Assembly (NCBI GenBank): GCA_046153645.1
Contig: JBJXGI010000053.1
Span: 15,512-79,511, forward strand
Length of the DNA stretch: 64,000 nucleotides
From: Elusimicrobiota bacterium
GTDB taxonomy: Bacteria > Elusimicrobiota > Elusimicrobia > F11
Reading direction: 5' to 3'
Positions 11,801-61,048 of the stretch are shown piece after piece (positions within the stretch are counted from its first letter, which is position 1; every line of letters starts with the position of its first letter). The position numbers were made by a program, and so were the translations under genes. The notes below the pieces were generated by a model that was not told the origin of the DNA, ran no database searches, and was given only the letters and a program-made list of their open reading frames with translations.

Positions 11801-12178
11801 TTTCTTTTCGTCATTCCATTGTTTGATAAGAGTTACAATTTTTTTTTGGGTTTCAGTATGCAAATGGATATCCTGAATCAAGACAATTGTATGGGGCTTT
11901 TCTTTTAAACTTAAAGCGGGAAAAAATTGCACAGAAAAATCCTCTCGAGGGACTGTTAAATCAGCTGAATGTGACTGAGAAAAAAATGATCCAAGCACAA
12001 CATCACTACCACCTTTTCTCAACCCTAATTTATGATCATTATTCTTAAAAGAATTTAGCGCTGGTTGGCTGGCAAATAGTACCTGAGTACAAAAATAAAT
12101 ACTCAATACCGAAAAAATCAATGTTTTTCGATATATTATTGGCTTAAACAAATAAGAAAGAAAGGAAGAAATAAACAC
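5819..12178 (-). CDS. giant (2119 aa) mosaic membrane protein, paralog A
   Basis: Uninterrupted 6360-nt ORF in AT-rich DNA. The track uses a GTG start and the exact start is uncertain. There is an N-terminal hydrophobic anchor/signal and hydrophobic blocks at about aa 620-745, 1140-1260 and 2028-2078. Domain sub-features are listed separately below. Confidence 0.85.
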   Translation of the reverse strand: MFISSFLSYLFKPIIYRKTLIFSVLSIYFCTQVLFASQPALNSFKNNDHKLGLRKGGSDVVLGSFFSQSHSADLTVPREDFSVQFFPALSLKEKPHTIVLIQDIHLHTETQKKIVTLIKQWNDEKKIGGVYVEGAQGYFQFGSFRKFSLELRRKVAEAFLKTKKIAGISFIGLTEESFVSVFGVDEENLYQENLKHYLSAVSSGEALLQEFLDDVHSLHREKTIVFNSALLSFDQLVYQYRKNKITLLNFLSSRFVFSSIANFKNLARFQQASLVELGLDFKQIEKEKVLFLTELGNVSNQKEKEFLLHFSFFLQQKKISLQHYLKKLFDLAHQKRIDVRQYSVLLEYEKYLGIIEEIDGSQLFEEVDNAIQLSYRQLIQNEIEKKVVEQSEDFYLLEKLLFFSMTPFESKKLKGKIPKSSPYSPHALFYETADLRSIKMAQNILENLSNGNEKRKPVVFIGGGFHVPEMKEILQDRCHTIILTPKVRSIEVGTTPEYFSLFHQEKTPLEKLISAQYLSLIPQKLLIGANSKPAMLSSMMYYLYLSLLSRLGSGEKIAGKIGSAELEMTIGDSSLNSPPSETLMLDGKRVSVRVQPSSPGLMGIWVLGRKMKLDRTLQIESMLIPLLIGPFFVLAEKYQLIAQGLNSFSAEWFSVIFVQSAYVATIAIIFVFLFHLATGVMQANKQPMWGILISALATLRVSVSFIFIPLFPLIIKLFILNVISFPLAVGLFILTTFILGFPHSFLSRLQLHENKINSFLTSNARSAIIRNLQPVVSFFSDRSLLIHSSAVEKIKFRQEDLPVPLGLLQRPLDKKNIRDVDTMIILGSHFLRVPEYAARILFEIESQNQIKRIIFTGKGGHRTPKEWGQTEASFFKSIFIKQCRLLLRQREESRCQRKYQNMHSLKARFLTLIEMFWWDLMGSKKELERIRSMIELEVESTNTGQNIEFTSKVILKDSLDRIPEDKAWKELLVRLLELKENKNKNETEKKEMLEIEKRLGSDEPGGLRSELMPFLPKNFLLLTVPSFQQRATDTFPQQYWLPYEKVYSLAPYDIDLDQMSKDDELADEDLLVMVDDMVKQLEKMEAYSRASPDGPFTFPSEKVIGNELLEAKKKLLTLYDLYREKIPNEKEDNKFLSFQKLAIVFSLFSIVGFAVLSLRSFVSLSEGGYVAFGISYFSLLSIVLLLPLLLKKFILNSNSKFSGRFDAFTLSVGYVLSFSLFSRAFVSHLDDLSPALLFILFLIFLLGTFSMTWSWSLLSNNHDPVVLDAPLTSSVSPVPTFDLHKLKQLQSSSYRPSPKKIVAIGRSFITTLFVAVKLVRQFLGSKNGVKYEVFFWNYLKKQIQMFQGVPPVSQENIEKAAAAAGIEKGSPDFLYLLGLYRQYVEMPVGPLHNLRNVSQYLVSFFRFEYQKNMGYRVNMNPDKMKRKMILDRDNPNGNFLMYSMLTDAEQANLGFIPYDDISRDPDLDVLQNATATFTRLEGGIGESMPRDAEVLRSKGVDLMFEKGYVNRDGDLQKKKITLAMGGLSQFMKKFKKGVRKIARVVYEPYVSKETETYYTDELLEVANEDQRHRNEDGQPIDSNRKVLRNDGIDYGYTYQKKLPKVVRDDLSLSTSQPVDHKTHQTGGHGHPAFHFLFHAMKMYRETMSHGGSVTPHVRVIANGDNLNSHMDENNMADMIKNKIPLSLVAVTAQEADIKGGKFGAVYDEHSKQWLLDLMEFQQAVDAGQKTEFLMAGQPGDPRKVRNQKFNTNMLYINEYVIGEILHRLSLSLGYGDKELGDIRLAEILTPVLIRRDFNKDGFANLDGGLASVVLGLNRYIQTNKTAKNILLTVTGHSYLVKVVDLDEKDVSQRFKNFSPIKLAVDYAVLTGTDRFVYDSAEDMFHDMYPNDPIPAFILNPTDPSNTYYKPIPTARAAFGEQLLIRGLRKLTVHGKVKFPDMSFSGVVEIDARSVNREIDLSQLIASQPDLFKYRKRVRLILNGGTFLESEKEAWHFENVKITIDQNLKVTLGEIIPSQGSLPEKGQFLFSHAIFLLPFLALSIDSVDGYVSPWVFDGFPVGALLGILSLCCIVWVLRAMKPHFLKDKYGVKAVSKKNRPYGEKYLDNRTRRFKQHLKMA
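6209..7771 (-). other. paralog A, UDP-glucose pyrophosphorylase (UDPGP family)-like domain
   Basis: The motif series is co-linear with eukaryote-type UGPase. RLEGGIGESM corresponds to LNGGLGTSMG. GGHGHPAF corresponds to PGHGD. VIANGDNLNS corresponds to VSNIDNLGA. DIKGGKFGAVY corresponds to DVKGGTLI. LLDLMEFQQ corresponds to LLEIAQVP. KFNTNMLYIN corresponds to FNTNNLW. Confidence 0.7.
9059..9736 (-). other. paralog A, DUF218 (YdcF/ElyC/SanA)-like domain with a charged insertion
   Basis: DVDTMIILGSHFLRVPEYAARILFE...KRIIFTGKGGH...GQTEASFFKSIF, followed after an insertion by LLLTVPSFQQRATDTF. This matches the DUF218 pattern (D-x-IVVLG ... sGG ... sEA ... lVTs-x-H-x-x-Ra). Confidence 0.5.
10619..11896 (-). 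other. paralog A, shared N-terminal module (about aa 95-520), TraB/GumN/Tiki-like pattern
   Basis: HTIVLIQDIHLHTETQKKI...IGGVYVEGAQG ... KPVVFIGGGFHVPEMKEILQDRCHTIILTPKV ... FHQEKTPLEKLI. These align by eye with paralog B (IVIHIQDVHRNAEAQKNI...VDLIALEGA ... VLVTGGFHSAGIDQRLSEAGYTVISFTPKI ... FAQEKTPLDQLF). The H...E...GGxH spacing resembles TraB/GumN/Tiki. Confidence 0.45.
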
Positions 12179-13899: not shown

Positions 13900-14313
13900 C
13901 TATTCTCCTATTATTTTAATAATGACTCTTTTTTTTCGCTGCCCATCAAATTCAACATAAAAAACTTGCTCCCAAGGACCCAAGTCTAATTCACCTTTTG
14001 TAATAGGTATCATCGCTTGATGATGAATAATTGTTCGTTTCAAGTGCGCATCCCCATTATCTTCTCCCGTTTGGTGGTGCCTATAGTCTAAACCATAAGG
14101 AGCCAGCTTCTCAACCCAATCAAACAAATCTTTTTTCAGCCCCTCTTCTTCATCATTCACCCAAATTCCAGCAGTAATATGCATCGCTGAAACAAGACAA
14201 AAACCTTCTTTAACCTTTGATTTAGCAACACAAGTTGAAATGTCCGGAGTCATATTTAAGATTCCATATCTCGCTGGAGTGTTAAACCATAAATATTCAG
14301 TAAAAGACTTCAT
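13900..14313 (-). CDS. yjbQ: YjbQ/UPF0047 family protein (secondary thiamine-phosphate synthase-type)
   Basis: 137 aa with typical family length and motifs (HITAGIWVNDEEEGL, HHQTGEDNGDAHLK, LDLGPWEQVFYVEFDG). It overlaps the upstream gene by 4 nt. Confidence 0.85.
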   Translation of the reverse strand: MKSFTEYLWFNTPARYGILNMTPDISTCVAKSKVKEGFCLVSAMHITAGIWVNDEEEGLKKDLFDWVEKLAPYGLDYRHHQTGEDNGDAHLKRTIIHHQAMIPITKGELDLGPWEQVFYVEFDGQRKKRVIIKIIGE

Positions 14314-15374
14314 AAAATTTCTTTATTTAACAATTCGATCTTTAGCTGTGCCTCTTGATGAGGAGCTACCACCTCAACTCGAGCTCGATAAAATTTCCCT
14401 AACACTTCTTGAACTCCATTCAGTTTAACAAAGCTTGATATTTCATTGGTTAACATCATTTTTTCTTTATCAAGTTCATCCAATCGATCTAGTAATTTGC
14501 CTAACCGATCAACAGACTCTTTAATACCCGCATCGCTTACGGCGCCAACTGGCTTTTTCTTACCAGAAAAAGCCGGGCAAATTTGAACATAATCACACCA
14601 CTGACAATGCCCCAAAGAATCAGGTTTCGGATCAAACTTAGCTTCTGTTATTCCCTTGGCAACCTCAACAACCGTTGTTTTAATTTGTGCCTCTTGCGCC
14701 TTAGAATGGGCGGGAACAATCAATGGCGTCAATGAATTAAGATGGTACAACCCCACCGATTCAACCTCGCGCCCTAAAACTTGAGTCACCGCCATCTGAT
14801 ATAGCGTTAATTGCGGATCAATTCTAACACGCGACTTATCAAAAGCTTTTCCTGTTTTGTAATCTAAAATAGATAATTTTTTATTGGGCAATTCATCGAT
14901 CCGATCAATAAAACCGGTGACAGGGACACCTTCAATATCAACCGTAAAATTAAGTTCCACTTGTAAAACTTTCTTGAGATCATCTTTGTGTTTGATATAA
15001 AAACCACGAAGGATACGTTCTCCCTCCTGGAAAAACCACCGTTCTTGCGAAGCGGTTTCATATCCTTCTCGAATCCAGGTATTTTTATAATATTCTAAAA
15101 CCGCTTCAATGGGAGGAATCAATGCGGACGTCTTTTCAAATAAAAACTCGAGCCCCCCATGAACGCTTTTGCCAAAAGAAAAAAATGACTTAGGTTTTTC
15201 TGGTGTTTTATCAATATAGCGAAATTTCCATCGCTGAGGACACGTCTTATACATACTCATGGAGGAATGAGACAAAGCGCGCCCTTTATACCAACTTTCT
15301 ATTTTAGGAGCTACCGGAGCCGGAGATACTTTTTTCTCTTCAGCACCGAACCCGTCAAAACTTAACTGACTCAC
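14310..15374 (-). CDS. PD-(D/E)XK nuclease with four-Cys (AddB/Cas4-type) cluster
   Basis: 354 aa. It has an N-terminal Cys (YKTCPQRWKFRYI), a nuclease core (GFIDRIDELPNKKLSILDYKTGK, QLTLYQMA) and a C-terminal CQWCDYVQIC. Confidence 0.75.
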   Translation of the reverse strand: MSQLSFDGFGAEEKKVSPAPVAPKIESWYKGRALSHSSMSMYKTCPQRWKFRYIDKTPEKPKSFFSFGKSVHGGLEFLFEKTSALIPPIEAVLEYYKNTWIREGYETASQERWFFQEGERILRGFYIKHKDDLKKVLQVELNFTVDIEGVPVTGFIDRIDELPNKKLSILDYKTGKAFDKSRVRIDPQLTLYQMAVTQVLGREVESVGLYHLNSLTPLIVPAHSKAQEAQIKTTVVEVAKGITEAKFDPKPDSLGHCQWCDYVQICPAFSGKKKPVGAVSDAGIKESVDRLGKLLDRLDELDKEKMMLTNEISSFVKLNGVQEVLGKFYRARVEVVAPHQEAQLKIELLNKEIL

Positions 15375-22597: not shown

Positions 22598-23197
22598 TTA
22601 CTGATGCTCGAGTTCAGTATTCCAGTAAACATTATCAATAAATCTTTGCCATGAAGCCTTTACTTTGAGACCGGGTCTAAAACATAAAGCGGCAGCGCCA
22701 GTCCATTCTGGCTTGGTTGCCTGAACCAGTAATTTCATTCCGGCTTCATCTGGCAAACGACTTCCTTTCTTTAAATTACAAGGAATACACGTGGTGACAA
22801 CATTTGACCAATCTGTTTTCCCTCCACGAGAACGAGGAATAACGTGTTCCAAGTTTAAATCAATGGTTGTAAATTTATGGCCACAATAGGCGCACTTATA
22901 ATTGTAATGCTCATAAATATTTCGCCTTGTGAATTTCACTTCAGATTTAGGTAACCCATCAAAATGGCGAAGAGTGACAACATCAGGAATGGCAATTTTA
23001 AATGAAGGGGTTTGGATAAATCCGGTTTTATCATCTGCCATTAAAGAGGAAATTTCACGCCAGTCTTCGAAGGTATAAGTTCGATATTCCTCATCAACAA
23101 CTCGCGCATGATCTAAATAAATTAGACTTAACGCGCGACGCCAAGAAATGATTTGAACCGCGAAAAAGCTGCGGTTAAGAACCAACACATCACTCAT
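22598..23197 (-). CDS. HNH endonuclease-family protein
   Basis: 199 aa with CAYCGHKF...LEHVIPRSRGGKTDWSNVVTTCIPCNLKKG, an HNH core with CxxC pairs. It is the last gene of the riboswitch-controlled cluster. Confidence 0.8.
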   Translation of the reverse strand: MSDVLVLNRSFFAVQIISWRRALSLIYLDHARVVDEEYRTYTFEDWREISSLMADDKTGFIQTPSFKIAIPDVVTLRHFDGLPKSEVKFTRRNIYEHYNYKCAYCGHKFTTIDLNLEHVIPRSRGGKTDWSNVVTTCIPCNLKKGSRLPDEAGMKLLVQATKPEWTGAAALCFRPGLKVKASWQRFIDNVYWNTELEHQ

Positions 23198-27866: not shown

Positions 27867-29380
27867 GCGTAAACTTTCATAGCCTCTTCAATTTTTTCCG
27901 TTATTTCAGAACCGTAACGATGCAATTGCATCTTATCAGGCCCCTCAATCATGATTCTCAGTAAGGGCTCCGTTCCTGAATAACGCACAAGAACTCTTCC
28001 CTGAGAACCCAGTTCACTCTCAATTTTTTTAATACATGAATGCGCCGCGGGTAGTTCATTAAGAGGAACACGTTTTTTAACCTTTAAATTCATTAACACT
28101 TGGGGATATTTCTTAATAAGTTCAGAAACATGAGAAAAAGGAAGTTTTGTTTTCTTGAAATATTTTAGTACTTGAAGGGCTGTCAAAAGCCCATCTCCCG
28201 TGGGAAGGTACTGCCCCATAATAATGTGGCCCGATTGTTCTCCCCCTAATATCGCTCCGGATTTTTGCATGGCCATAGAAACAAATCGATCACCGACAGA
28301 AACTTCTTCGCAAGAAATTTTTTGAGCGGCCAATGCCTTTTTAAGGCCTAAATTAGCCATCACTGTAATTACAACTTTATTCTTAACAAGAGCTTTTGAT
28401 TCCTTCAAATGCCCAGCGAGAAAAGCAATAATATGATCGCCATCCAACGAATGCCCTTTTTCATCAACGAAAATAACTCGATCGGCATCTCCATCAAATG
28501 CAATTCCTAAGTGACAATGTTCTTTACGAACCAATATTTCTAAATCAGAGGTATGCTGAGAACCGCATCCAACATTAATATTTCTTCCATTGGGCCTAGC
28601 ATGAATGACATGCAAATCTGCTCCTAAACGTCCCAAGATACGCGGGGCTAACAAAAAACTAGCTCCATTCGAACAATCCAAAGCAATTTTCAAACCATTC
28701 AATTTGATTCCTTCTAAGGTATCAATAAGAAAGGATTCATACACTTCTCTTAATTGTTCCACTTTTATCAACTTATCTTTCGAACTTTTAAGTGGAGGAG
28801 TCGGTTTTTTATGCCATTGAAAAAGAAGAGATTCAACCGTTTCTTCCCAAACATCAGGCCACTTTCGAGCTGACGCATTAAAAAATTTGATTCCATTAAA
28901 TTCAGGCGGGTTATGGGAAGCAGAAATCACAATACCAGAATGGAATTTCTGAGAGCGAACCAAGTGCGCAGCTCCAGGGGTACTTATTACACCAACAGAA
29001 AAAACATCAATTCCTTTTTGCTGTAACCCTTTTGCGATCATTTTTTCAATCCACTGACCTGACAAACGAGTATCCCGTGCAATAAGAATCTTAGGCCGAC
29101 CTTTCTTGACATGGTCCCTTAACACTTCTCCTGCAGCAAGACCAATATAATAAACGTCTTTTTTACTTAATGGCGATTTACCCGCAATTCCGCGAATACC
29201 ATCAGTTCCAAATAATTTTGGGGCTTTATTAGACAAGAGAATGAAATTCCTTTTGATTGAGTTAACATCAGATATGCATCGATAAGGGATTATACCAGAA
29301 AAACCAAATTCCTCCGAGGAGAATTGATAAAAAGAGTCTTTAAACACCAGGGCAGACGTTAAGGCAAATGAGCCAGCCAT
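27863..29380 (-). CDS. glmM: phosphoglucosamine mutase
   Basis: LFGTDGIRG, the active-site sequence ISASHNPPEFNGIKF, and FDGDADRV. The track start at 29380 adds about 48 non-conserved residues. A TTG at 29236 (MSNKAPKLFGTDGIRG) with AAAGGAA upstream is the more likely start. Confidence 0.9.
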   Translation of the reverse strand: MAGSFALTSALVFKDSFYQFSSEEFGFSGIIPYRCISDVNSIKRNFILLSNKAPKLFGTDGIRGIAGKSPLSKKDVYYIGLAAGEVLRDHVKKGRPKILIARDTRLSGQWIEKMIAKGLQQKGIDVFSVGVISTPGAAHLVRSQKFHSGIVISASHNPPEFNGIKFFNASARKWPDVWEETVESLLFQWHKKPTPPLKSSKDKLIKVEQLREVYESFLIDTLEGIKLNGLKIALDCSNGASFLLAPRILGRLGADLHVIHARPNGRNINVGCGSQHTSDLEILVRKEHCHLGIAFDGDADRVIFVDEKGHSLDGDHIIAFLAGHLKESKALVKNKVVITVMANLGLKKALAAQKISCEEVSVGDRFVSMAMQKSGAILGGEQSGHIIMGQYLPTGDGLLTALQVLKYFKKTKLPFSHVSELIKKYPQVLMNLKVKKRVPLNELPAAHSCIKKIESELGSQGRVLVRYSGTEPLLRIMIEGPDKMQLHRYGSEITEKIEEAMKVYA

Positions 29381-30585
29381 CGATCAGCGGAAACAACCCA
29401 TTGAATGAAGCCATCTGTCTTAATTTTTTTGCAAACACCCTGTTTATGAAGAAGTTGAATTGATACTGAAACCCCAAGTTTTTTTTGAAAATAAGAAAGC
29501 GATGGGGAGACGTCTTCTTCTGACGTTTTACATTCAATCAAACAAAGTATTTTTTTATCTTTAACCAAACAAAAGTCCACCTCGCGCTTCTCTTTGTCTC
29601 GGAGGTAGTGGAGGGAAATTTTTCCTTCTCCCATTGCTTCCCATGTTTTGACTGCTTTAAGGAGATGAAGAGCCACGACATTTTCAAAGCGATAGCCCGT
29701 CTCAGGAATTTCCACCCAATCGTAAAGATAGACTTTCGTTTCTTTTCTGAGTGAACGTGCCAACGTCCCTGTGTATGGAGTGACGCGGAAAAGGTAAAAG
29801 AAACGATCGAGAAGAAGTAGCCAATCACGAACCGTTTCAAATGCAACACCAATGTCTTCTTTTAAAGCGTTAATAGAAAGAGGGCTTCCAACACGCTCTG
29901 GAACAAGATGCGAGAGCATTTCGAGGAGCGAAAGGTCTTTGATGTGAACCATACTTCGGATGTCCTCTCTCAAAAGAAGACTCTTTCTCTCTTGAAACCA
30001 TCGATTGTAAAAACTTGTTGTCCCACGCAAAAACGGCTCAGGGAAACCACTGTACTGAAAAAGATCATCATATTTTGATCGAACAGACCCCGTTGACTCC
30101 GGAACGTCTACCAGCATCTCTTTGAACTCCTTGAGAGTGGTCCGTTTTTCATGTAGCTCTCCTAAACTCAAAGGGAAAAGTGGGATACTGAAATAACGCC
30201 CCAACAGACTGTCTCCGCCTTTTTTAAAAAGTTCAAGGCGACCGCTTCCTGTTACCAAAAAGCGAAACTCAGTCTTAAAATCATCATATGCCCCTTTCAA
30301 ATAATTTTTCCATCGACTGTATTTGTGGATTTCATCAAACACAACCAAAAACGGTCTTTTGGGATCCCGGTTCTCTTTTTGAAAAAAATAAGGATCTTTG
30401 AGCAGCTTCTTTTGATTGATCACATTATCCCAGTTAAAGTAGATACCTTGACCGAAATGGTTTCGATAATCTTGAGCCAGTGTCGTCTTCCCCACCTGAC
30501 GTGGCCCGCTTAGGAATGCCATCTTATTGAAAGCTTCAACTGTCTCTTTTAAAAGAGGGAGAGTGGTTCGTTTAATCATGAGCAT
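29359..30585 (-). CDS. AAA ATPase of the COG1373 type (AAA_14 + DUF4143-like C-terminal domain), paralog 1
   Basis: 408 aa with Walker A SGPRQVGKTT, Walker B LVVFDEIH and C-terminal EKREVDFCLV. It is co-linear with the ORF at 61057-62223. The real start may be the second ATG at 30579. Confidence 0.75.
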   Translation of the reverse strand: MLMIKRTTLPLLKETVEAFNKMAFLSGPRQVGKTTLAQDYRNHFGQGIYFNWDNVINQKKLLKDPYFFQKENRDPKRPFLVVFDEIHKYSRWKNYLKGAYDDFKTEFRFLVTGSGRLELFKKGGDSLLGRYFSIPLFPLSLGELHEKRTTLKEFKEMLVDVPESTGSVRSKYDDLFQYSGFPEPFLRGTTSFYNRWFQERKSLLLREDIRSMVHIKDLSLLEMLSHLVPERVGSPLSINALKEDIGVAFETVRDWLLLLDRFFYLFRVTPYTGTLARSLRKETKVYLYDWVEIPETGYRFENVVALHLLKAVKTWEAMGEGKISLHYLRDKEKREVDFCLVKDKKILCLIECKTSEEDVSPSLSYFQKKLGVSVSIQLLHKQGVCKKIKTDGFIQWVVSADRWLAHLP

Positions 30586-30613
30586 ATTTTAGACCTAAGT
30601 CTAATAAAGTCAA
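30586..30613 (-). promoter_or_regulatory. sigma70-like promoter candidate (TTGACT-16 nt-TAAAAT) abutting the ATPase start codon
   Basis: The minus strand reads TTGACTttattagacttaggtcTAAAATatgctcATG. The -10 box ends 6 nt before the second ATG. Confidence 0.4.
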
Positions 30614-30628
30614 GACTTTTTTAGACTT
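30597..30628 (-). promoter_or_regulatory. 15-bp-arm imperfect palindrome between the giant-gene stop and the ATPase start
   Basis: The minus strand reads AAGTCTAAAAAAGTC-TT-GACTTTATTAGACTT, with one mismatch. It overlaps the -35 candidate. Confidence 0.6.
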
Positions 30629-30636
30629 GAGTCGAA

Positions 30637-33600
30637 TTAAGCGCCAACAGCCACAACTCGCGCCAACCCAATAACAAACCCGAGATTTCGAACTGGAAAC
30701 TCTGACATGGCTGACAGCAATTCTTCTAGAGAAAGGTATTTGATGTGGTACAGAATGGAGGACTGAGTGGGTCCTGATGCCATCAGTTGCAACAACAGAT
30801 CTCTTGATATCACAAAATCCGGCAACAGTTGATTGCTTGCTTGTAAGGCGGTCATCGTTTGCTCAAAGACGATTTTGTTTATTTTTCCTTTTGAGAAAAG
30901 GCCCTTTTGTGGCATCAGTTTAATCTGCCACTGAAGGTTTTTTCTCAGGAGTTTCTCAAATTCTTTTTGATCATTTTCATCTATGACGAATTCGAAATTC
31001 ATGGAACGATTTAGATACTGCTTTAACTTTTTACTTCTTAAATCTTTAGCCCGAAGCACCATTTGAACCGCCTTTCCTTTCAAATGTCGCTTGTTTATGG
31101 TGTTTTCGTCTGGTGATCTTGCCACCTTTTCTGCCAACTCCAAGGCCTCTTCTGGTTCCAATTTACGCTCTTTATCTTTTAAGGTGTTTTCTAATTCCCG
31201 CACCAATAATTCCAATTTTTCCGGGTCAGATTGGCTTATCGCTTGGCGCGCCAAAGGATTATCCAAGCCCATTTTGACAACTTGTCCCGTGAGGCTATTT
31301 AAAATGTCGCCGGCCCGCTTAGATTGAATTAAATCCGCTTGCTCTGAAATTCCCCACTTCTTAGCCACATCCGTCAAAACCGCCTCTACAACCAGTACGA
31401 CCACATTGGCAAACAGAAAATAGAAGGAAACAAAGAGAACAACATAATCGACGAGAGAATGAGAAAAGAAAATAAGTGCGGGGATATAAACGAGAAGTGA
31501 AATAATAACCATGAAAATATTTACGTAGATGCCGTACATGGCAGGCGGCCCGCGTGTTTCCCACGGCATTTTTCCGGTGAACATACCTCGAATTATTTTC
31601 AAGGTACCATAATCGAGTCGTTTTCCTTCAGTCGGCCCACCAATCAAGTGCCCGCCTTCATGAGAGGTGATTCCACCGAAAAAAACTGTTCGGACAAGCC
31701 AATTTAACCACATGAGATTATTTCTTTTCGCCCAGTTGGAATTAAAAATATTGGCGAAGAGGGAAGGGGTTTCTGATGTTAAAGTTGCGGGTGATAAAAG
31801 CGTCTGATTCTGTCTTCGGAATATTTCCAGATAAAGGGAGATTCTTTCAAGAATCAATGCTAAGTCAGAGTTAATTCGATCGTAACCGATTCGTTGCGCA
31901 ATAATTTTGATGAGGTCAAAACTTGTTACCACCTGCCCTCGATGCGCGGAGAGAAACGCCTCGCGTACCAATTCGCGAATGAACAATCGACGAAGAAATG
32001 GCGGAAGGTTAAAACGATTTTGGAGATAAACTTCCTCTACCACATCAAATGGCACATTAATATTTTTAATATCAAACGCTGTCGATGGGAACTCCAAACG
32101 AAATACTGTTTTCCCATTCTGAGAGAGAAGATCAAAATGGGCACCCAACCATTCCGATATCATTTCGATCTGATTTAGTGCAACGCCATTTTCCCCAGAA
32201 AGATTAAAATATTTTTTATCTTCACCTCTAATGGTTGTAAACCGCCAAGCAGTCAATATTGAAAAAATGTCAGCTGCAGATAAATCGGTCTTATGACCTA
32301 GTTGAGTAAGAATGCGAATGGATTTCCAAATTTTTGGCTCTTCTCTATTATAGTGAACAACTTCATCCGTATCACCCGTACCTTCTTGCAGCCGAAGGCG
32401 TAACGATCTTATGATGACAGGAATCTGTTTTCGAATTTTTTCAGGATCGATGACACCGGGATTTGAAATTTCTAATGCCAAGGTTCCCAATTTATAATTT
32501 TTGAAAATTCTAATTTTGATCTCGCTGGTGGACCACTTAGGATTTGATCGCGCCCATGCATCGTGAGCATTTTTTAGAATTTCGCGGACGCTATGCATAA
32601 GTAAATATATGGCCCAAGGATCGTGAGCCGTCACATGGGCTTTTTGGTTTATGAAATCTCCGAGCTTTTTATCACCATATTCAGCACTTAAAATATAATC
32701 TTTATCTTCAGAAGATCCTTCCCACACCAGAACCATTTCGTCTTTGGAGTCGTTTTGTGAATTGCCAAACGTCAGTGGCCGCTGTCCTATTTTCCACGCT
32801 CTCTTATTAAAATCACGGTGCGCCCTAACGCCACTCCACCAAGAAATTGCCGCTGCTTTTTTGATCTCTTTCCATCCCACTGTCAGCCAGTCTCTTTCCT
32901 CATCATCTTTGGGGTCGTGTTTTTCGACAAACCCCTCTTTCGCATGTTCCCCCGCTTCCCAAATTGGCGCGAAACGGATGGAAATGAATTTTTTTCTTAA
33001 TGTCCACACAGCCAATGGAATGGTGAAGGCAAATGAATAAAAAACAGAACTATGATAAGTTGCGATAAAAAGAAATGTAGCATTAAAAATAAAATGAATT
33101 ACTCCAAAGAAGATATAACCAGAAGTGTAGGTAGACTGAAGTGTAGCTGGAGATTTTATTATTTCCCCCTGATATTTTCCTTTTAGAGCGGTTTCATTTT
33201 TATCTCCATATTGCTGCTCAATCAATAGTTGATTTAAATTTGGGAATAAATTGCGAACAGCCAACACAACGGGATTCCTGGTCTGTTGATATAAAGGTAA
33301 TGTTACAGGTGTAATTTTCTCCAGTCTTCTCCCTGGAAATAAATTATTTTTATCTATAGGAAGGTGAGAAGCATTAAAATCAAAGAATCCATGAAGAACA
33401 TACCCAGTCCAATTAATTTTAAATTGAGAAATTTTATTTGGCTGGCCCTGAGTTAAAGTAATTGAATTGGCTTGGGATGAACAATTACCAAGACCCTGAA
33501 GAACGAATCCGAAAAATTGAGCCGGAGTTAAATGTTCAGCTAAAACAATGCTTTCGGCATCCCAAATAAAAGGAAGTTCTTCACCGTTTATTTTAATGGT

Positions 33601-36600
33601 CCCATAATTAGCTCTGTAAAGCTGCATATGGACAATTCCGCGTTCGGCAAGGCGTTTATACAACAAACCATTATCGTTATTAATTTTCTCAAGAACGCGG
33701 TGCAACTCAGAAGTTTTTCGAAGATTTTCTCGCTCAGGCGCATTTGCAGCCAGATATTCCTTTGTAAATGGTTGATATTTTGAAAATTGATTGTTTATGT
33801 TCTCTATTGAACTTGTAATCAAATCTCTAGGCGGCAATCCCAATACAACCATTCCTGCCGATCTATCTTGTGGCGTAGTGTCACCAGGCAATTCATAAAG
33901 GCACAAAGGAGGAGGCGTAAGAAACCCCTTTTTTAAAAGTGCTTGCCCTCCTAAAAATTCCGCAACAGCGTCTTCGAAATTCAACCCATATAAAGGATTA
34001 AAGTGATATTCCTCTGTGTAATAAATCCCACTGGGAGTGAAGTTCTCATCTCCAGGCTGAAAATGAGCTGGGACTAGACCCTCTCGTCTTAACCTTTCGG
34101 CAGGATCAAAAATGATAGCTGCGTTTTCTAAAGTACCGCCTTTCACTTTGATCGTCTTGAGAGGGAACCCATTAATCATGACAACGTCTGGAAGATCAAT
34201 TTCTAAACTACGTTCAAACTTATTGCTGTCGCCTTTGTGGGAATTGCGCCGGTCATAATCAACTCCAAGTTTTAATTTTGAAAATGGAGTTTTCACAATT
34301 TTTTCTATTTTGTCTTTCAGCCAAGGGTAAATTGCAATCAATTGTGCATAAACATCCGTTGTTTCATGCAAAATAAACTCGCGACTTTTGTCATTTTGTG
34401 GCAATGGTGGCTGTTCCGCGGTGGGAACATTAGTTATATCTACCGACACTAAATCGACTACGCCGTTCAAAACAGCGCTAATTTGTGGAATGATGGAAAA
34501 GTCAATCGCATTCAGCAATTCCTCTGCTGCTTCGTTTCCTCTCAAAAGTGTGGATTGCATGCGCCTTTTTAATTCATCTCTGGGTTCTTTATTCCTAATA
34601 GCTTCAAGCCATGCCCCTGCAATTTCATTAAGTCGTGGCAAGGAAGACTCACCAACACCCACATGTTTTATGGCCATCATCAACTGATTCAAAGCATCGA
34701 GAGCGTTAGGGTTTATGGAATCGGGTGCCAAGGGTTTATAAGGTTCTTTTTTCTTTCGACTAAACAAATCCCAAATGGCTAAATACGCCCCCTCTTTCAA
34801 GGCCGATTTTGAACCGGATGTGGCTGCACTTAATAAAAACATACCTACGTTGTAAGACATGTGAACCAAAATAGCAGAGACCAAACTGTTTGATTCGACA
34901 TAGGTCAGAACAATTAAAGTTGTGCCTCCAGTTTGAAGGCCCAGACGAGCGATGAAGGCAGTAACAAAATTTATATTTTTTTCGACAGCATCTTTTTTCG
35001 CCAAACTAAAACTTCGCGGAATGTGGAATGCAAAAAACGTAAAACCCATAAGAATGGGACTTAAACCCCATATCCCTATTAAAAGCTCACGAAAAATCAA
35101 CTCTTCCAGAAAAGGTAAAAAAATAAAAATGCTACCCACAGAAAAAATAACCACCCTTCGTTCATAAACAACTTTCACAAATTCACCAGTCCGATCAAAC
35201 CAGGCTGACAAAACCCCCCGCGGAAATTTAATGGCCACTTTTCCGGCAAACCCAGAAAATTTTTTAACAAGTTCATAAAGCGCGAAAATACTGGCTTGCG
35301 AGGAAGGGATGGGCGCTTCCGCCAAAAACAGTTTTTCTCCTTCAAACAATTGGTCGAGCGGAGTTTTTTCTTGCGCGAACACAGTGAGATAGGACGACCC
35401 ATTTTCTGAATTGACCTTCGTGATTTTAGGAGTAAAAGAAATAACCGTGTAACCTGCTTCGCTTAAACGTTGGTCGATGCCGGCCGAATGGAAACCACCC
35501 GTAACCAAAACTGCGTTTTGGTAATTTCCAAAACCCAAATCACAATGATCAATTGATTTTTTTAGTTTTGGAGATTTGTTTGTTATTTGATATTTGGTAT
35601 TTGAGTTTTCAATGATCTTTAGAAAATTACTTGCCATTTTTTCATCTCGAATTTCCGCTTGCTTATAAAAATTCTCAAAAGACTCTAAGGCAAACCCCTC
35701 CCCGCCTTCCCTCCCCACCGAAAAACGTGGGGAGGAATTTATATATTCTCCCCATTCTTCTTTTGTTAGTGAAAAGTCCACTAATTTTTTAGTTAAAGAT
35801 AATGCGTGTGATTCTTTAATCAATTGTTTTTCAACGTCTGTGTTAGCGAGTGAGGAATAAATTGATTCCTCCATTTTTTCAATACTTTTGAATAAATCAT
35901 CTGCGTTAATTTGGTCGCTTAAAAGCACATACTGAAGATACGAATTCATCGCAGGATAGCGGGACAACGCAATTTCTTTTTTATCGCAGAGATTTTTCAA
36001 ACGAGCGTAAAAATCGGCATGAGAAATATTTCCCAAACGATAAGCCACACTGGTCGCAATCAGAGATTGAGACTCAAAAGTGCCTAGCTTAGCCAAGAGC
36101 TGTGAGAGAAGTTGACCTCGCTCCCTTTCAACGGCAGCGAAATTAAGGCGGGATTCCAAATGAATCGCTTTCAAGAATATTTGAATCTGAAAATGCTCAT
36201 TAAAACCCTTATCCGTGTCGTCGCCCCGGCGGAGGCCGGGGTCCAGGTCGTTAACCGGCTTTTTAGAAAAAAGTTTAAAGCTGGAAAGAAACTCCACATA
36301 TTTCCCCAAAGACAAAGTATCGCCACGGTACAATTCGACCTGGCAATCAAAATCGTAAAGAGCTGCATTAAAAATTGTTTTCTTCTTTTGAGCAAGTTCG
36401 GTTCTTAGCTCATTTAACTGCTGCTTATTCTTTTCAATATGAGAGGCCGATTGCCGGTAAGCTTCTACATTTGCCTTATAATGAGCGGAATCATCAACCC
36501 CGATAAATCGAGGAAGGGTTTGCCCCGAACGCAGTTGAAGAGTGAAACCCGTATAAATCGGCCCAGAGACTTTATTTTCCCGAAGCAAATAGTTGGCCAC

Positions 36601-37152
36601 TTTTCTAGTTGCCTCTGGTGGAAACACCCTGAAAGGGTTTAAATCGATGGGGTTAAACGCGCCTTCCAACGCAATGAGATCAACCTGATTACCATCAATA
36701 AGTCCTTGAATGGTTTTGCCGATATTTTTTTGGGCTTCGGCGTTTCGATGGACATCTTGGATGTGAATGACGATTCGTCCATTTTTTCCCTCACCCTGAC
36801 CCTCTCCCCGACGGGGAGAGGGAAGAGTGATTTCTTGAATTGTTCCGTATTGGGTTGATAAGTTTTGAAACAGAGAAGAGAGTTGGGGTGCAATATCCTT
36901 TGGAACCGATTCTTCAAATTGGCGTGGCAAAGACGCTTGAACATGAGGAAGTTGCTGCAAGATCGAGTGAGAATTTTCCAGAGCAACATTTGAAGGCAAT
37001 TGCGCTAATTGGATTGACTTTTTGTTGTCAACAGAACGTCGACGCTCTGCCCAAACAGACTTCTTTGGGTTATGGGCAAATGCACAATTTGTGGCGAAAT
37101 AAATAATGGCCAACGCAGTGGAAATCGATCGAATAAAAACTCGCTTTTTCAT
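30637..37152 (-). CDS. giant (2171 aa) mosaic membrane protein, paralog B
   Basis: Uninterrupted 6516-nt ORF with an ATG start and a clean signal peptide, MKKRVFIRSISTALAIIYFATNCAFA. Domain sub-features are listed separately below. Confidence 0.9.
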   Translation of the reverse strand: MKKRVFIRSISTALAIIYFATNCAFAHNPKKSVWAERRRSVDNKKSIQLAQLPSNVALENSHSILQQLPHVQASLPRQFEESVPKDIAPQLSSLFQNLSTQYGTIQEITLPSPRRGEGQGEGKNGRIVIHIQDVHRNAEAQKNIGKTIQGLIDGNQVDLIALEGAFNPIDLNPFRVFPPEATRKVANYLLRENKVSGPIYTGFTLQLRSGQTLPRFIGVDDSAHYKANVEAYRQSASHIEKNKQQLNELRTELAQKKKTIFNAALYDFDCQVELYRGDTLSLGKYVEFLSSFKLFSKKPVNDLDPGLRRGDDTDKGFNEHFQIQIFLKAIHLESRLNFAAVERERGQLLSQLLAKLGTFESQSLIATSVAYRLGNISHADFYARLKNLCDKKEIALSRYPAMNSYLQYVLLSDQINADDLFKSIEKMEESIYSSLANTDVEKQLIKESHALSLTKKLVDFSLTKEEWGEYINSSPRFSVGREGGEGFALESFENFYKQAEIRDEKMASNFLKIIENSNTKYQITNKSPKLKKSIDHCDLGFGNYQNAVLVTGGFHSAGIDQRLSEAGYTVISFTPKITKVNSENGSSYLTVFAQEKTPLDQLFEGEKLFLAEAPIPSSQASIFALYELVKKFSGFAGKVAIKFPRGVLSAWFDRTGEFVKVVYERRVVIFSVGSIFIFLPFLEELIFRELLIGIWGLSPILMGFTFFAFHIPRSFSLAKKDAVEKNINFVTAFIARLGLQTGGTTLIVLTYVESNSLVSAILVHMSYNVGMFLLSAATSGSKSALKEGAYLAIWDLFSRKKKEPYKPLAPDSINPNALDALNQLMMAIKHVGVGESSLPRLNEIAGAWLEAIRNKEPRDELKRRMQSTLLRGNEAAEELLNAIDFSIIPQISAVLNGVVDLVSVDITNVPTAEQPPLPQNDKSREFILHETTDVYAQLIAIYPWLKDKIEKIVKTPFSKLKLGVDYDRRNSHKGDSNKFERSLEIDLPDVVMINGFPLKTIKVKGGTLENAAIIFDPAERLRREGLVPAHFQPGDENFTPSGIYYTEEYHFNPLYGLNFEDAVAEFLGGQALLKKGFLTPPPLCLYELPGDTTPQDRSAGMVVLGLPPRDLITSSIENINNQFSKYQPFTKEYLAANAPERENLRKTSELHRVLEKINNDNGLLYKRLAERGIVHMQLYRANYGTIKINGEELPFIWDAESIVLAEHLTPAQFFGFVLQGLGNCSSQANSITLTQGQPNKISQFKINWTGYVLHGFFDFNASHLPIDKNNLFPGRRLEKITPVTLPLYQQTRNPVVLAVRNLFPNLNQLLIEQQYGDKNETALKGKYQGEIIKSPATLQSTYTSGYIFFGVIHFIFNATFLFIATYHSSVFYSFAFTIPLAVWTLRKKFISIRFAPIWEAGEHAKEGFVEKHDPKDDEERDWLTVGWKEIKKAAAISWWSGVRAHRDFNKRAWKIGQRPLTFGNSQNDSKDEMVLVWEGSSEDKDYILSAEYGDKKLGDFINQKAHVTAHDPWAIYLLMHSVREILKNAHDAWARSNPKWSTSEIKIRIFKNYKLGTLALEISNPGVIDPEKIRKQIPVIIRSLRLRLQEGTGDTDEVVHYNREEPKIWKSIRILTQLGHKTDLSAADIFSILTAWRFTTIRGEDKKYFNLSGENGVALNQIEMISEWLGAHFDLLSQNGKTVFRLEFPSTAFDIKNINVPFDVVEEVYLQNRFNLPPFLRRLFIRELVREAFLSAHRGQVVTSFDLIKIIAQRIGYDRINSDLALILERISLYLEIFRRQNQTLLSPATLTSETPSLFANIFNSNWAKRNNLMWLNWLVRTVFFGGITSHEGGHLIGGPTEGKRLDYGTLKIIRGMFTGKMPWETRGPPAMYGIYVNIFMVIISLLVYIPALIFFSHSLVDYVVLFVSFYFLFANVVVLVVEAVLTDVAKKWGISEQADLIQSKRAGDILNSLTGQVVKMGLDNPLARQAISQSDPEKLELLVRELENTLKDKERKLEPEEALELAEKVARSPDENTINKRHLKGKAVQMVLRAKDLRSKKLKQYLNRSMNFEFVIDENDQKEFEKLLRKNLQWQIKLMPQKGLFSKGKINKIVFEQTMTALQASNQLLPDFVISRDLLLQLMASGPTQSSILYHIKYLSLEELLSAMSEFPVRNLGFVIGLARVVAVGA
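31363..31710 (-). other. paralog B, membrane-embedded HExxH block
   Basis: FFGGITSHEGGHLIGG is followed by hydrophobic segments (YGIYVNIFMVIISLLVYIPALIFF...). The equivalent sequence in paralog C is VPIHELTHAYV. Confidence 0.5.
32083..32610 (-). other. paralog B, GHKL (HATPase_c)-like domain
   Basis: N-box-like REILKNAHDA, LALEISNPGVID, and a C-terminal GENGVALNQIEMISEWLGAHFDLLSQNGKTVFRLEFP. The last resembles the G2 box and final strand of histidine-kinase ATPase domains. Confidence 0.5.
33523..34200 (-). other. paralog B, kinase-like spacing with substituted catalytic residues (very tentative)
   Basis: IKVKGG ... GIVHMQLYRANYG ... LPFIWDAES. The spacing resembles the beta3-Lys / HxD-x4-N / DFG arrangement, but the catalytic Asp positions are not conserved. 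Confidence 0.2.
34828..35145 (-). other. paralog B, CPBP (CAAX protease/Abi)-like intramembrane protease core
   Basis: FLPFLEELIFRELL (EExxxR), FFAFHIP (FxxxH) and ILVHMSYNVG (HxxxN/D), all within hydrophobic segments. Confidence 0.65.
35695..35740. repeat. GC-rich palindromic mini-element, in frame in paralog B (encodes SPRFSVGREGGEG)
   Basis: The plus strand reads cccctccccgccttcCCTCCCCACcgaaaaacGTGGGGAGG, with a 9-bp stem at 35710-35735. It has the same C-rich tail plus hairpin layout as the element at 36788. Confidence 0.7.
36217..36250. repeat. GC-rich hairpin, in frame in paralog B (encodes DPGLRRGDD)
   Basis: CCCCGGC-ggag-GCCGGGG at 36224-36241, inside an otherwise AT-rich gene. Confidence 0.65.
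36788..36827. repeat. GC-rich palindromic mini-element, in frame in paralog B (encodes LPSPRRGEGQGEG)
   Basis: The plus strand reads ccctcaccctgaCCTCTCCCCgacGGGGAGAGGgaagag, with a perfect 9-bp stem and 3-nt loop at 36801-36821. Paralog A lacks about 13 residues at exactly this point. Confidence 0.8.
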
Positions 37153-37200: not shown

Positions 37201-38340
37201 TTAATTTTGGTGAGGACGATGTAAATGATTTGTTACATAAGGAATGTTGAGGTAATAACGGGCGTACCGATTTTCGCCTTTTTTTATCAATGCATTTTTC
37301 ATGACCAAGCCAACCAAATCGCGCGTTGTTGTGGCGGCAGATGCTTTGGTGATAGCGATGTATTTTTTAGCGCTCAATCCACCTGCAAATCCTTCGGGTC
37401 CTTCCCGGAAGAGGCGCATGACCGCTTTTTCCTGCCGTTCATTCAGTTGACCTCTCAAACGATCCAGAAATTTCATTTTTTCAATCATAAATTCTACGTG
37501 GCCTGCAGTACGCTTTTGCGCTTCAAGAGCTGTCGTAGAAAACCAAGAGAGCCAGCGCGTCATTTCATTTTTTTTATTCGCTTCTTCCAAGACATCGTAG
37601 TAAGCATTTCGTTTACTTAATATTGTTGTAGCTAAGACTGTCAATGTTGCCGCCCCAAGACTTTGCGACAATATCTTTTCAGAAATGGCCCGAGCAAGAC
37701 GGCCATTACCATCCTCAAAAGGATGAATAGAAACAAAATAAAGATGAGCTATTCCAGATCTTGTCAATGCGGGGAGAGGGTCTCGTCCCGTAGGCCCTGT
37801 GCGGTTAAACCACTCAATGAAACGTTTCATTTCAGCGGGCACATGTGATGAAGGTGGTGCTTCAAAATGGATTTTCGGTGAATGAAGGGCACCTGAAACA
37901 ACTTGCATGGGTTCAAGATAAGACCTATAAGAACCAATATTTTTCAGGTCTCTTCGACCTTTCATCAACATTCGATGCCATCGGGAAAGTGTTTGATGTG
38001 TTAATGGAGTTGAAAAACCACGGTAAAGATCGACCATCATTTCGGCAATTCCTTGTTCTGCCGGTTCTATAGGATTTTTATCAGCCGCAAGACCCAGTTG
38101 CCGACAAATGGAAGACTGAACACTTTTTCTGTTAAGAATTTCCCCTTCAATCTCGGAGGTCGTGACGGCTTCTGTACTCATGATTTCGACAGTGAATTGC
38201 TCTTTGTCACTTAAGGAAAGATATTTGGTTATACCGACAATAGAACCAGCACCCAATAAAAAAAGCTCTTCTGCCTTGGTAAGGAGCTGTTTTTTCCAGG
38301 TAAATTTGGGCCAATCAGATTGTTGCCAGTTCCATTTCAT
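37201..38340 (-). CDS. Fic-family protein (class II, with N-terminal inhibitory motif)
   Basis: 379 aa with the canonical Fic motif HPFEDGNGRLAR and an (S/T)xxxE(G/N) inhibitory motif, TSEIEG, at aa 61-66. Confidence 0.85.
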   Translation of the reverse strand: MKWNWQQSDWPKFTWKKQLLTKAEELFLLGAGSIVGITKYLSLSDKEQFTVEIMSTEAVTTSEIEGEILNRKSVQSSICRQLGLAADKNPIEPAEQGIAEMMVDLYRGFSTPLTHQTLSRWHRMLMKGRRDLKNIGSYRSYLEPMQVVSGALHSPKIHFEAPPSSHVPAEMKRFIEWFNRTGPTGRDPLPALTRSGIAHLYFVSIHPFEDGNGRLARAISEKILSQSLGAATLTVLATTILSKRNAYYDVLEEANKKNEMTRWLSWFSTTALEAQKRTAGHVEFMIEKMKFLDRLRGQLNERQEKAVMRLFREGPEGFAGGLSAKKYIAITKASAATTTRDLVGLVMKNALIKKGENRYARYYLNIPYVTNHLHRPHQN

Positions 38341-60999: not shown

Positions 61000-61048
61000 G
61001 CAAAACTTTATATAGAAAGTTTTGCTTCAACGCAAAACTTTCTATATA
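61000..61048 (+). promoter_or_regulatory. three-copy GCAAAACTTT motif forming a perfect 17-bp inverted repeat and an alternative 10-bp hairpin
   Basis: TATATAGAAAGTTTTGC-ttcaac-GCAAAACTTTCTATATA at 61009-61048. A further GCAAAACTTT at 61000-61009 can pair with 61016-61025 instead. TATACT (61045-61050) ends 6 nt before the ATG at 61057. Confidence 0.7.

Follow-up and report, generated by a model that had tools for sequence, protein, structure and literature searches.

Overview of the locus

The window (the whole stretch of DNA analysed, 64,000 nucleotides of contig JBJXGI010000053.1 in assembly GCA_046153645.1) is an Elusimicrobiota-like chromosomal segment with a GC content of approximately 40%. 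We report here on three short GC-rich hairpins, elements 1, 2 and 3, that are located in frame within one of its genes, paralog B, and on a fourth element in an unrelated open reading frame (ORF). Its genes stand close together, most of them on the minus strand, and are largely of housekeeping type (GlmS, GlmM, PdxJ, FtsH, TilS, CdaA, QueC and ClpB), and ORFs of at least 150 amino acids (aa) account for 91% of the window. The features of main concern, with the basis for each assignment in brackets, are the following:

30637 to 37152, minus strand: paralog B, the host gene, an intact ORF of 2171 aa (ORF list and translation)
36788 to 36830, minus strand: element 1, classified as a canonical BoxC/PIT/TMECO intrastrand-triplex/G-quadruplex (G4)-hairpin motif (exact pattern fit)
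36219 to 36246, plus strand, antisense to the gene: element 2, classified as an NTS/dRS3-like hairpin of the Ssn-related-motif type (consensus and flanks)
35695 to 35740, minus strand: element 3, classified as a second triplex-type motif (architecture and flanks recurring in two homologous genes)
62960 to 63009, plus strand, opposite to its host ORF: the fourth element, classified as a second BoxC/TM copy (shared core, same architecture)
62220 to 63959, minus strand: orphan ORF of 579 aa with hydrophobic segments, host of the fourth element
5819 to 12178, minus strand: paralog A, an ORF of 2119 aa with none of the elements, used as the within-genome "empty" comparator

Paralog B starts with a signal/transmembrane segment followed by a conserved module of ≈500 aa (motifs HIQDVH, EGA and VTGGFH), while its C-terminal part is variable and includes an Rce1-like (CAAX-protease) domain (residues 669-769; Pfam). 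The GC content of the gene is approximately 40-43%, and the three hairpins are situated in the 5' quarter of the ORF. Homologs are proteins from Elusimicrobiota metagenome-assembled genomes (MAGs), with a top identity of 49%. Paralogs A and B have only the N-terminal module in common (26% identity); their C-terminal parts are unrelated, with a UDPGP-like region in A and the Rce1-like domain in B. Comparison of the module with the PDB using Foldseek gave no significant structural relative (weak erythromycin-esterase-like matches, E > 0.5), and the module is therefore left unnamed. A metagenome scan with the module alignment resulted in 80 loci (L121-L200), and 74 homologous modules were aligned with those of B and A. 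In the metagenome homologs the module is fused to differing C-terminal parts, among them a sigma factor and an inositol monophosphatase, and two to three module copies are present on several contigs.

Three GC-rich hairpins in paralog B

The preliminary description of this DNA, made from the sequence alone, had pointed to three hairpins in this gene and to their translation in frame. Both observations hold: the stems of elements 1, 2 and 3 are perfect over 10, 7 and 9 bp, respectively, and within the intact ORF the elements are translated as LPSPRRGEGQGEG, DPGLRRGDD and SPRFSVGREGGEG. One base was missing from its transcript of element 1, and the sequence as read in the window is ccctcaccctgaCCCTCTCCCCgacGGGGAGAGGGaagag.

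Short islands of at least 75% GC number 21 in the window, and the three sites belong to this set. Using a stem of at least 7 bp, at least 70% GC and a loop of 3-12 nucleotides (nt) as criteria, seven perfect GC-rich hairpins are present in the window compared to 1.6 ± 1.2 (maximum 5) in 30 dinucleotide shuffles, and three of the seven are inside one 1.1-kb stretch of paralog B. RNA folding, which the preliminary description had proposed as a check, gave -30.6 kcal/mol for element 1 (z = -4.15 versus shuffles) and -29.3 kcal/mol for element 3 (z = -3.85), i.e., both fold beyond the shuffled sequences while element 2 does not (see below); for the fourth element z was -2.9 and -3.4. A search against Rfam gave no match near threshold. 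The real signal is the clustering of three copies in one module together with their recurrence in homologs.

Repeat families represented by the elements

Element 1 (residues 108-122, ..TLPSPRRGEGQGEG) reads cactctt-CCCTCTCCC-CGTCG-GGGAGAGGG-TCA-GGGTGAGGG on the minus (sense) strand, and its stem-loop, CCCTCTCCCC-gac-GGGGAGAGGG, covers positions 36800-36822. It agrees exactly with the published BoxC/PIT/TMECO pattern, 5'-CCCTCNCCC-N3-6-GGGNGAGGG-N3-GGGNGAGGG-3' (Holder et al. 2015, PMC4666352), and thereby has the BoxC/TMECO design, in which a short loop joins a 9-nt C-block to a complementary G-block and a mirror G-block follows after a further loop of 3 nt. This tripartite design yields four G3 tracts with 3-nt loops that, by inspection, are within the usual G4 rule. 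The same string has been described as a G-quadruplex-hairpin-duplex (HPGQ) switch (Kaplan et al. 2016, PMC5100583), and sequences of this type were reported to form a hairpin, an intrastrand triplex or a G4 (PMC4666352, PMC5100583). Judged from the pattern, element 1 is a candidate triplex- or G4-capable motif; the folding computed here is that of the hairpin.

In Escherichia coli K-12 all 23 copies of the motif are reported to be intergenic, with "none within" ORFs (PMC4666352, PMC5100583). TMECO has no associated transposase, and the only correlate reported is local genomic instability, the E. coli loci being more rearranged than controls (PMC4666352). The same authors counted the motif in proteobacterial genomes and saw no phage association, and earlier work, as it is cited there, found no promoter or terminator activity for TMECO motifs in E. 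coli (PMC4666352).

The preliminary description had proposed a search for copies in other genomes, and such copies are plentiful. A scan of one genome per GTDB species located the 20-nt core of element 1, GGGAGAGGGTNAGGGTGAGGG, in at least 120 genome stretches. Among the matches listed nearly all have the complementary arm CCCCTCTCCC 1-12 nt upstream, and they span Planctomycetota, Alpha- and Gammaproteobacteria (including Enterobacter, Klebsiella, Leclercia and Pseudomonas), Dehalococcoidia, Myxococcota, Acidobacteriota, Nitrospirota, Atribacterota, Cyanobacteria and Elusimicrobiota. The core is also present in at least 120 stretches of IMG/VR viral contigs (L201-L320), many of which are predicted prophages and may include host DNA.

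The window itself has a second copy, the fourth element, with the sequence CCCTCTCCCG-tggcaa-CGGGAGAGGG-TTA-GGGTGAGGG and translated as PHPNPLPLPRERGEKG. In this copy (62972-63009) the first loop is 8 nt, or 6 nt with a 10-bp stem, and it is a close variant of the BoxC/TMECO pattern with a longer first loop. For its host ORF neither a Pfam domain nor a homolog at E ≤ 1e-3 was found. Both BoxC copies of the window lie within long ORFs with the frame kept.

Element 2, within an insertion of ≈22 residues and translated as residues 303-312 (LDPGLRRGDD), reads CGTCG-CCCCGGC-GGAG-GCCGGGG-TCCAG on the plus strand; the stem-loop CCCCGGC-ggag-GCCGGGG covers positions 36224-36241. SsnA, a GIY-YIG nuclease with specificity for single-stranded DNA, targets the Neisseria NTS/dRS3 repeat (NTS consensus CGTCATTCCCGCGMAVGCGGGAATCYRG), and "Ssn-related motifs" resembling this repeat are reported to be widespread (PMC11893778). 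In Neisseria the NTS repeats cluster around genes and modulate the integration of transforming DNA (PMC11893778). Both NTS flanks (CGTC and TCCAG) are present in element 2, and six of its eight mismatches to the consensus correspond to three compensatory stem pairs. The family form is CGTC-R-[CCCCGGC | TCCCGGC | TTCCGGC | TTCCCGC]-loop-[complement]-YCCAG, and the version with TTCCCGC corresponds to the Neisseria NTS/dRS3 repeat. These flanks, around stems that vary in graded fashion, are seen in related loci (L131, L145, L162, L184, L129, L155, L159, L165, L167, L173 and L187), where L129 reads an NTS-like copy in the frame of element 2 (LDSGLRRNDD). Moreover, NTS-type hairpins in module loops and upstream regions of L129, L155, L159, L173 and L176 form REPIN-like inverted doublets and runs with as many as four copies; within the homologous modules their in-frame translation gives RHSGESRNP...LDSGLRRNDD or VIPAKAGIH...DSRLR...CLRGNDD.

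Element 3 (residues 471-486, NSSPRFSVGREGGEGF) has the stem-loop CCTCCCCAC-cgaaaaac-GTGGGGAGG at 35710-35735 and a C-rich tract, CCCCTCCCCGCC, at 35695-35706. The minus (sense) strand of the element has the sequence aaatt-CCTCCCCAC-gtttttcg-GTGGGGAGG-gaa-GGCGGGGAGGGG, that is, a C-block, a G-block and a mirror G-block. Including the flanks, the shared form is aaaYt-CCTCCCCAY-loop of 8-9-RTGGGGAGG-N3-GGAGGGG, and the family recurs in two of the 80 related loci, at site 2 of L131 and, in opposite orientation, at site 3 of L138.

The elements are dispersed repeats. A reading of the three hairpins as a single family was rejected after comparison of the flanks. As far as can be judged from pattern and consensus, two of the families are already known under other names, BoxC/TMECO and NTS/dRS3-like.

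Filled and empty sites in homologous modules

The preliminary description had noted that paralog A lacks residues at the first and third sites; this is the case, and A is without the extra residues at the second site as well. Among the homologs, site 1 (span G103 to I131) has a median of 21 residues compared to 29 in B and is a short linker in 73 of the 74, such that element 1 represents extra residues relative to these. The site-2 loop has a median of 23 residues and is 45 residues long in B. The site-3 loop is hypervariable, 15 to 198 residues, with minimal forms in L132, L147 and paralog A, and many homologs have other repeat-like peptides at this site.

Family copies in the 74 modules sit at alignment columns of low occupancy, except for two NTS-like copies (83% occupancy), and they cluster near B residues 81-94, 111-119, 207-210, 291-310 and 475-488. 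At these loops the three families appear in frame in differing combinations, frames and orientations.

Further repeat-like loop peptides were observed in P0005 and P0009 (alignment A1, columns ≈688-707) and at site 3 of L121, L125 and L178, for example CIVHG(T/A)S..KHDARCTM(H/Y)DAP, HPERSEGS and VIA(S/R)E(A/R)..KQSH. These peptides suggest that additional element families may use the same landing sites.

The closest relative of B, P0001, is its reciprocal best match and neighbour-joining sister (52% identity). It has LPSPHWGEGQGEG at site 1 and nothing at sites 2 and 3; the peptide, which was read as peptide only, is compatible with the same hairpin, and the site-1 element seems to be common to B and P0001.

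An alignment of homologs with and without insertions, which had been put forward as a check, revealed filled and empty sites between relatives up to 71% identical, and the elements are accordingly gained and lost at specific loops. Specifically, L174 has a 36-nt BoxC-type (TM) insert (..TPSPHEGEGRGEG..) at a site that is empty in L132 (71% identical), L169 and L147. Conversely, L132 and L169 both have a BoxC-type insert in the N-terminal region and a site-2 variant, neither of which is present in L174 or L147, and L169 has an additional copy beside the site-2 variant in opposite orientation. Hence, L132 and L169, which are 57% identical, have two orthologous inserts in common that are absent from L174 (71% identical to L132). 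Such a pattern requires that inserts were precisely lost, that they were gained in parallel at the same sites, or that recombination took place.

Its poor fit to a simple tree bears on an alternative that we consider very improbable, namely that these are real repeats marking recombination junctions and were brought in with exchanged gene segments (by gene conversion or mosaic recombination between paralogs or with transforming DNA) instead of being singly inserted. The architecture of the family, a shared N-terminal module with unrelated C-terminal parts and more than one module copy on several contigs, would suit such an origin, as would the rearranged TMECO loci of E. coli and the role of NTS repeats in the integration of transforming DNA in Neisseria. 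However, filled and empty alleles differ by little beyond the element, e.g. the 36 nt in L174, and no element is located at the junction between the module and the C-terminal part.

Family-1 copies, variants included, number 12 in the 80 loci. Nine of these are in the module, which represents 26% of the DNA, and none was found in the remaining 185 kb of the same family ORFs. The stems are maintained at the nucleotide level: the elements shared by L132 and L169 show 82% and 93% nucleotide identity, with the differences mostly in the loops, compared to 62.5% for the modules overall and 48% at third codon positions. The scenario under which the preliminary description would have been withdrawn, with elements unique to this gene and hairpins eroded by synonymous change, is thus not what we see; insertion is supported because the elements recur elsewhere and their stems have not been eroded.

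That the stems are far better conserved than adjacent synonymous sites, and that copies are concentrated in the N-terminal module with none in the rest of the ORFs, is also in keeping with the hairpins being functional cis-elements selected in place. They would then be structures of the mRNA (a hairpin or an RNA G4) or of the DNA that make ribosomes or polymerase pause where one domain of this very large secreted or membrane protein adjoins the next, or RNase or attenuation sites, with the peptide loops as a by-product. We regard this as unlikely, although the apparent retention of the site-1 element in P0001 fits it. The G-rich strand is the sense strand in eight of nine module copies of the loci and in gene B (approximately six of seven independent events), but this bias is weak after counting shared ancestry. 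Moreover, the same loops host unrelated families in either orientation in different homologs, most homologs are empty, and the lack of promoter and terminator activity in E. coli, as cited in PMC4666352, points in the same direction.

The same DNA is translated in several frames and orientations, giving PSPxxGEGxGEG, LLPMREKVRMRG and PHPNPLPLPRERG. Together with nucleotide conservation above the synonymous-site level, an exact 20-nt core common to at least 120 genomes of unrelated phyla and non-coding-type flanks common to copies in different genes and frames, this leaves hardly any room for an origin in place of ordinary low-complexity or loop-coding sequence, through selection for Gly/Pro/Glu-rich linkers and with the palindromes being incidental. 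What such an origin has in its favour is that the three sites are variable-length loops in all homologs and that the fold of hairpin 2 is not unusual for its composition.

Predicted structure of the module

The insertion points were placed on an AlphaFold model of the B module (mean predicted local distance difference test score, pLDDT, 72.5), in which adding 107 to the number of a model residue gives that of the B residue. Segments with pLDDT < 50 at model residues 8-16 (B 115-123), 190-210 (B 297-317) and 371-377 (B 478-484) coincide with elements 1, 2 and 3, respectively. Other segments below this value are model residues 412-437, a B-specific AT-rich insert, and 470-512, the C-terminal end of the model. 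All low-pLDDT segments are placed between confidently predicted helices and strands. The three element sites are accordingly predicted to be surface loops, modelled with low confidence, as the preliminary description had expected.

Copies outside the gene family

Translated copies are not confined to this gene family. In a Devosia MAG the catalytic domain of a class-I (Ile-type) tRNA synthetase contains an in-frame TM copy (..VPSPPRGEGQGEGA..), and in an Elusimicrobiota single-cell genome a TM copy constitutes the C-terminal tail of CarA. By inspection, four of the six frames through the motif are without stop codons. Among the pan-bacterial TM copies 42% are within ORFs of at least 200 codons compared to 85% of random positions (stop-to-stop ORF count); the TM family is depleted from long ORFs overall, and in high-GC genomes this count is too crude to give the true coding fraction. 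The tRNA synthetase and CarA cases were each verified individually.

A wider generalisation, which we put forward tentatively and with more doubt than conviction, is that BoxC/triplex- and NTS-type repeats regularly colonise coding genes in frame across phyla and are translated as PSPxxGEGxGEG-type loops. The module loops would then be preferred landing sites, and the structured DNA or mRNA might be kept by selection, e.g. as recombination or diversification points or as translation-pausing signals.

Probable insertion of three repeat families and their translation

Taken together, we consider it probable (roughly 0.8) that each of the three islands is a copy from a different family of short, structured and dispersed repeats, and that these copies were inserted in frame and are translated. 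The preliminary description had compared them with Rickettsia palindromic elements (RPEs). As behaviour this comparison stands, considering the repeat families, the filled and empty sites, the stem conservation and the loops; the elements are, however, not RPEs, and they belong to three families, not one. Because no mobilising gene was found in the window or the related loci, we infer mobility from distribution only.

Each element would have entered the gene as a unit of ≈28-45 nt, probably through a process that uses hairpin DNA in single-stranded form. With the NTS type, an Ssn-type nuclease could nick the DNA and copy-repair could follow, and for the triplex type fork stalling and template switching between copies, or copy-repair, might be considered. 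Coding copies would survive only if the net length change is 3n, the frame is stop-free (one of four) and the site is a tolerant surface loop, and the survivors would be translated into flexible Pro/Gly/Glu/Arg-rich loop residues. The N-terminal module would offer four or five permissive loops that have been hit repeatedly and independently. The stems may be kept at the nucleotide level by structural constraint or because copies homogenise one another. For the protein the effect is probably neutral or nearly so, and at the DNA level the elements could have a role as sites of local instability or recombination.

Several observations weigh against insertion of mobile repeats as described above. 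No transposase, RAYT/Y1 or GIY-YIG Pfam match was found among 41 of the 43 window ORFs of at least 150 aa, a motif scan for a small GIY-YIG (Ssn-like) ORF was negative for the window and for L121-L200, and neither a transposase nor a RAYT gene was found in the flanks of the related loci. Target-site duplications were not recognisable at the filled-versus-empty sites, where the comparators are at most 71% identical. Element 2 appears to be only a variant of NTS, matching at 20 of 28 positions, and its fold is ordinary for its composition (z = +0.16); its significance therefore rests on conserved flanks that are common to a repeat family. That all four elements of the window are in ORFs is the expectation of random placement at 91% coding density. 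Finally, if the site-1 element is common to B and P0001, as it appears, that copy would be old and retained, which is not obviously predicted for a neutral passenger.

Neighbouring genes and other repeats

Two AAA_14 + DUF4143 ATPase genes, at 29359-30585 (minus strand) and 61057-62223 (plus strand), are mutually 42% identical, and each adjoins an element-bearing ORF (gene B and the ORF at 62220-63959); this adjacency may be coincidence. In the short intergenic gaps beside them are AT-rich inverted repeats (30589-30636 and 61009-61048), one with 23-nt arms of 83% complementarity and the other with perfect 17-nt arms, TATATAGAAAGTTTTGC / GCAAAACTTTCTATATA, which are probably terminators or operators.

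A DUF4172-Fic gene is located immediately upstream of gene B (37201-38340, minus strand) and has no obvious link to the repeats. The same applies to an HNH endonuclease ORF (22598-23197, minus strand) and a PD-(D/E)XK (Cas4-like) nuclease ORF (14310-15374, minus strand).

In gene B, residues 519-544 (window positions 35530-35610) represent an AT-rich insertion of ≈26 residues, NTKYQITNKSPKLKKSIDHCDLGFGN, without counterpart in any homolog and with low pLDDT. This insertion has no hairpin and is therefore regarded as another kind of indel.

Comparison with known systems

BoxC/TMECO, to which to our knowledge no function has been assigned since the 1990s, is a multi-copy and widespread family with no associated transposase, and element 1 and the fourth element fall within it. 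In contrast to the intergenic E. coli copies, those in the window are intragenic, in frame and translated, and the host here is an Elusimicrobiota bacterium with ≈40% GC, whereas the counts in PMC4666352 are for proteobacterial genomes. Element 3 has a tripartite "triplex" design like that of BoxC, but its blocks differ.

Element 2 resembles NTS/dRS3 in having oriented flanks, CGTC...TCYRG, around a GC-rich hairpin of 7-8 bp with a 4-nt loop, and exact NTS copies (cgtcATTCCCGCGAAAGCGGGAATccag) as well as graded intermediates, often as inverted doublets, are present in homologous genes. It differs in that three stem pairs are exchanged (TTCCCGC to CCCCGGC), and in that it is in frame within coding sequence whereas NTS in Neisseria is clustered around genes.

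Short GC-rich hairpins mobilised by RAYT (IS200/IS605-type Y1) transposases are known as repetitive extragenic palindromic sequences (REPs) and, in doublet form, REPINs; REPs are by definition extragenic. Transposable elements of the miniature inverted-repeat type (MITEs) have terminal inverted repeats and a target-site duplication and are usually 50-400 bp. With both, the present elements share short GC-rich hairpins, dispersal and many copies, and in L129, L155, L159 and L173 NTS-like copies are arranged as inverted doublets in the manner of REPINs, doublets being seen only for NTS-like copies in other loci. However, the window elements are intragenic and showed neither terminal inverted repeats nor target-site duplications, and a RAYT gene was not detected. 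Membership of the REP/REPIN-RAYT class was rejected, as the Pfam scan of 41 window ORFs gave no Y1 transposase and the elements are intragenic. The elements are also well below typical MITEs in length, and no duplication is visible with comparators that are at most 71% identical.

Our literature search gave no description of an intragenic, translated state of BoxC- or NTS-type repeats in Elusimicrobiota, nothing on the translated peptides and no further follow-up on TMECO; what is new here is this state of the repeats in Elusimicrobiota. NTS/Ssn-related motifs are recently described nuclease targets, and the host phylum is poorly studied. The gene family represents a natural experiment with dozens of independent gains and losses at defined loops, which can be used to study element spread, selection on structure and protein tolerance. 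Such peptides also have a bearing on annotation, where they give rise to spurious similarities and to odd GC islands within genes.

RPEs, as summarised in PMC10969869 from Ogata et al. (2000), are ≈100-150 bp long, encode a conserved peptide of ≈30-50 aa and were described from Rickettsia. Those in the present study measure 28-45 nt, represent other sequence families and are found in other phyla; membership was rejected on length and host (Elusimicrobiota), RPEs being set apart by their description rather than by sequence comparison. What the two have in common is that palindromic repeats enter unrelated genes with the frame kept, are translated and are tolerated where the fold allows it. The best-known examples of such translated, in-frame palindromes come from Rickettsia, and our data extend this behaviour to two other widespread repeat classes.

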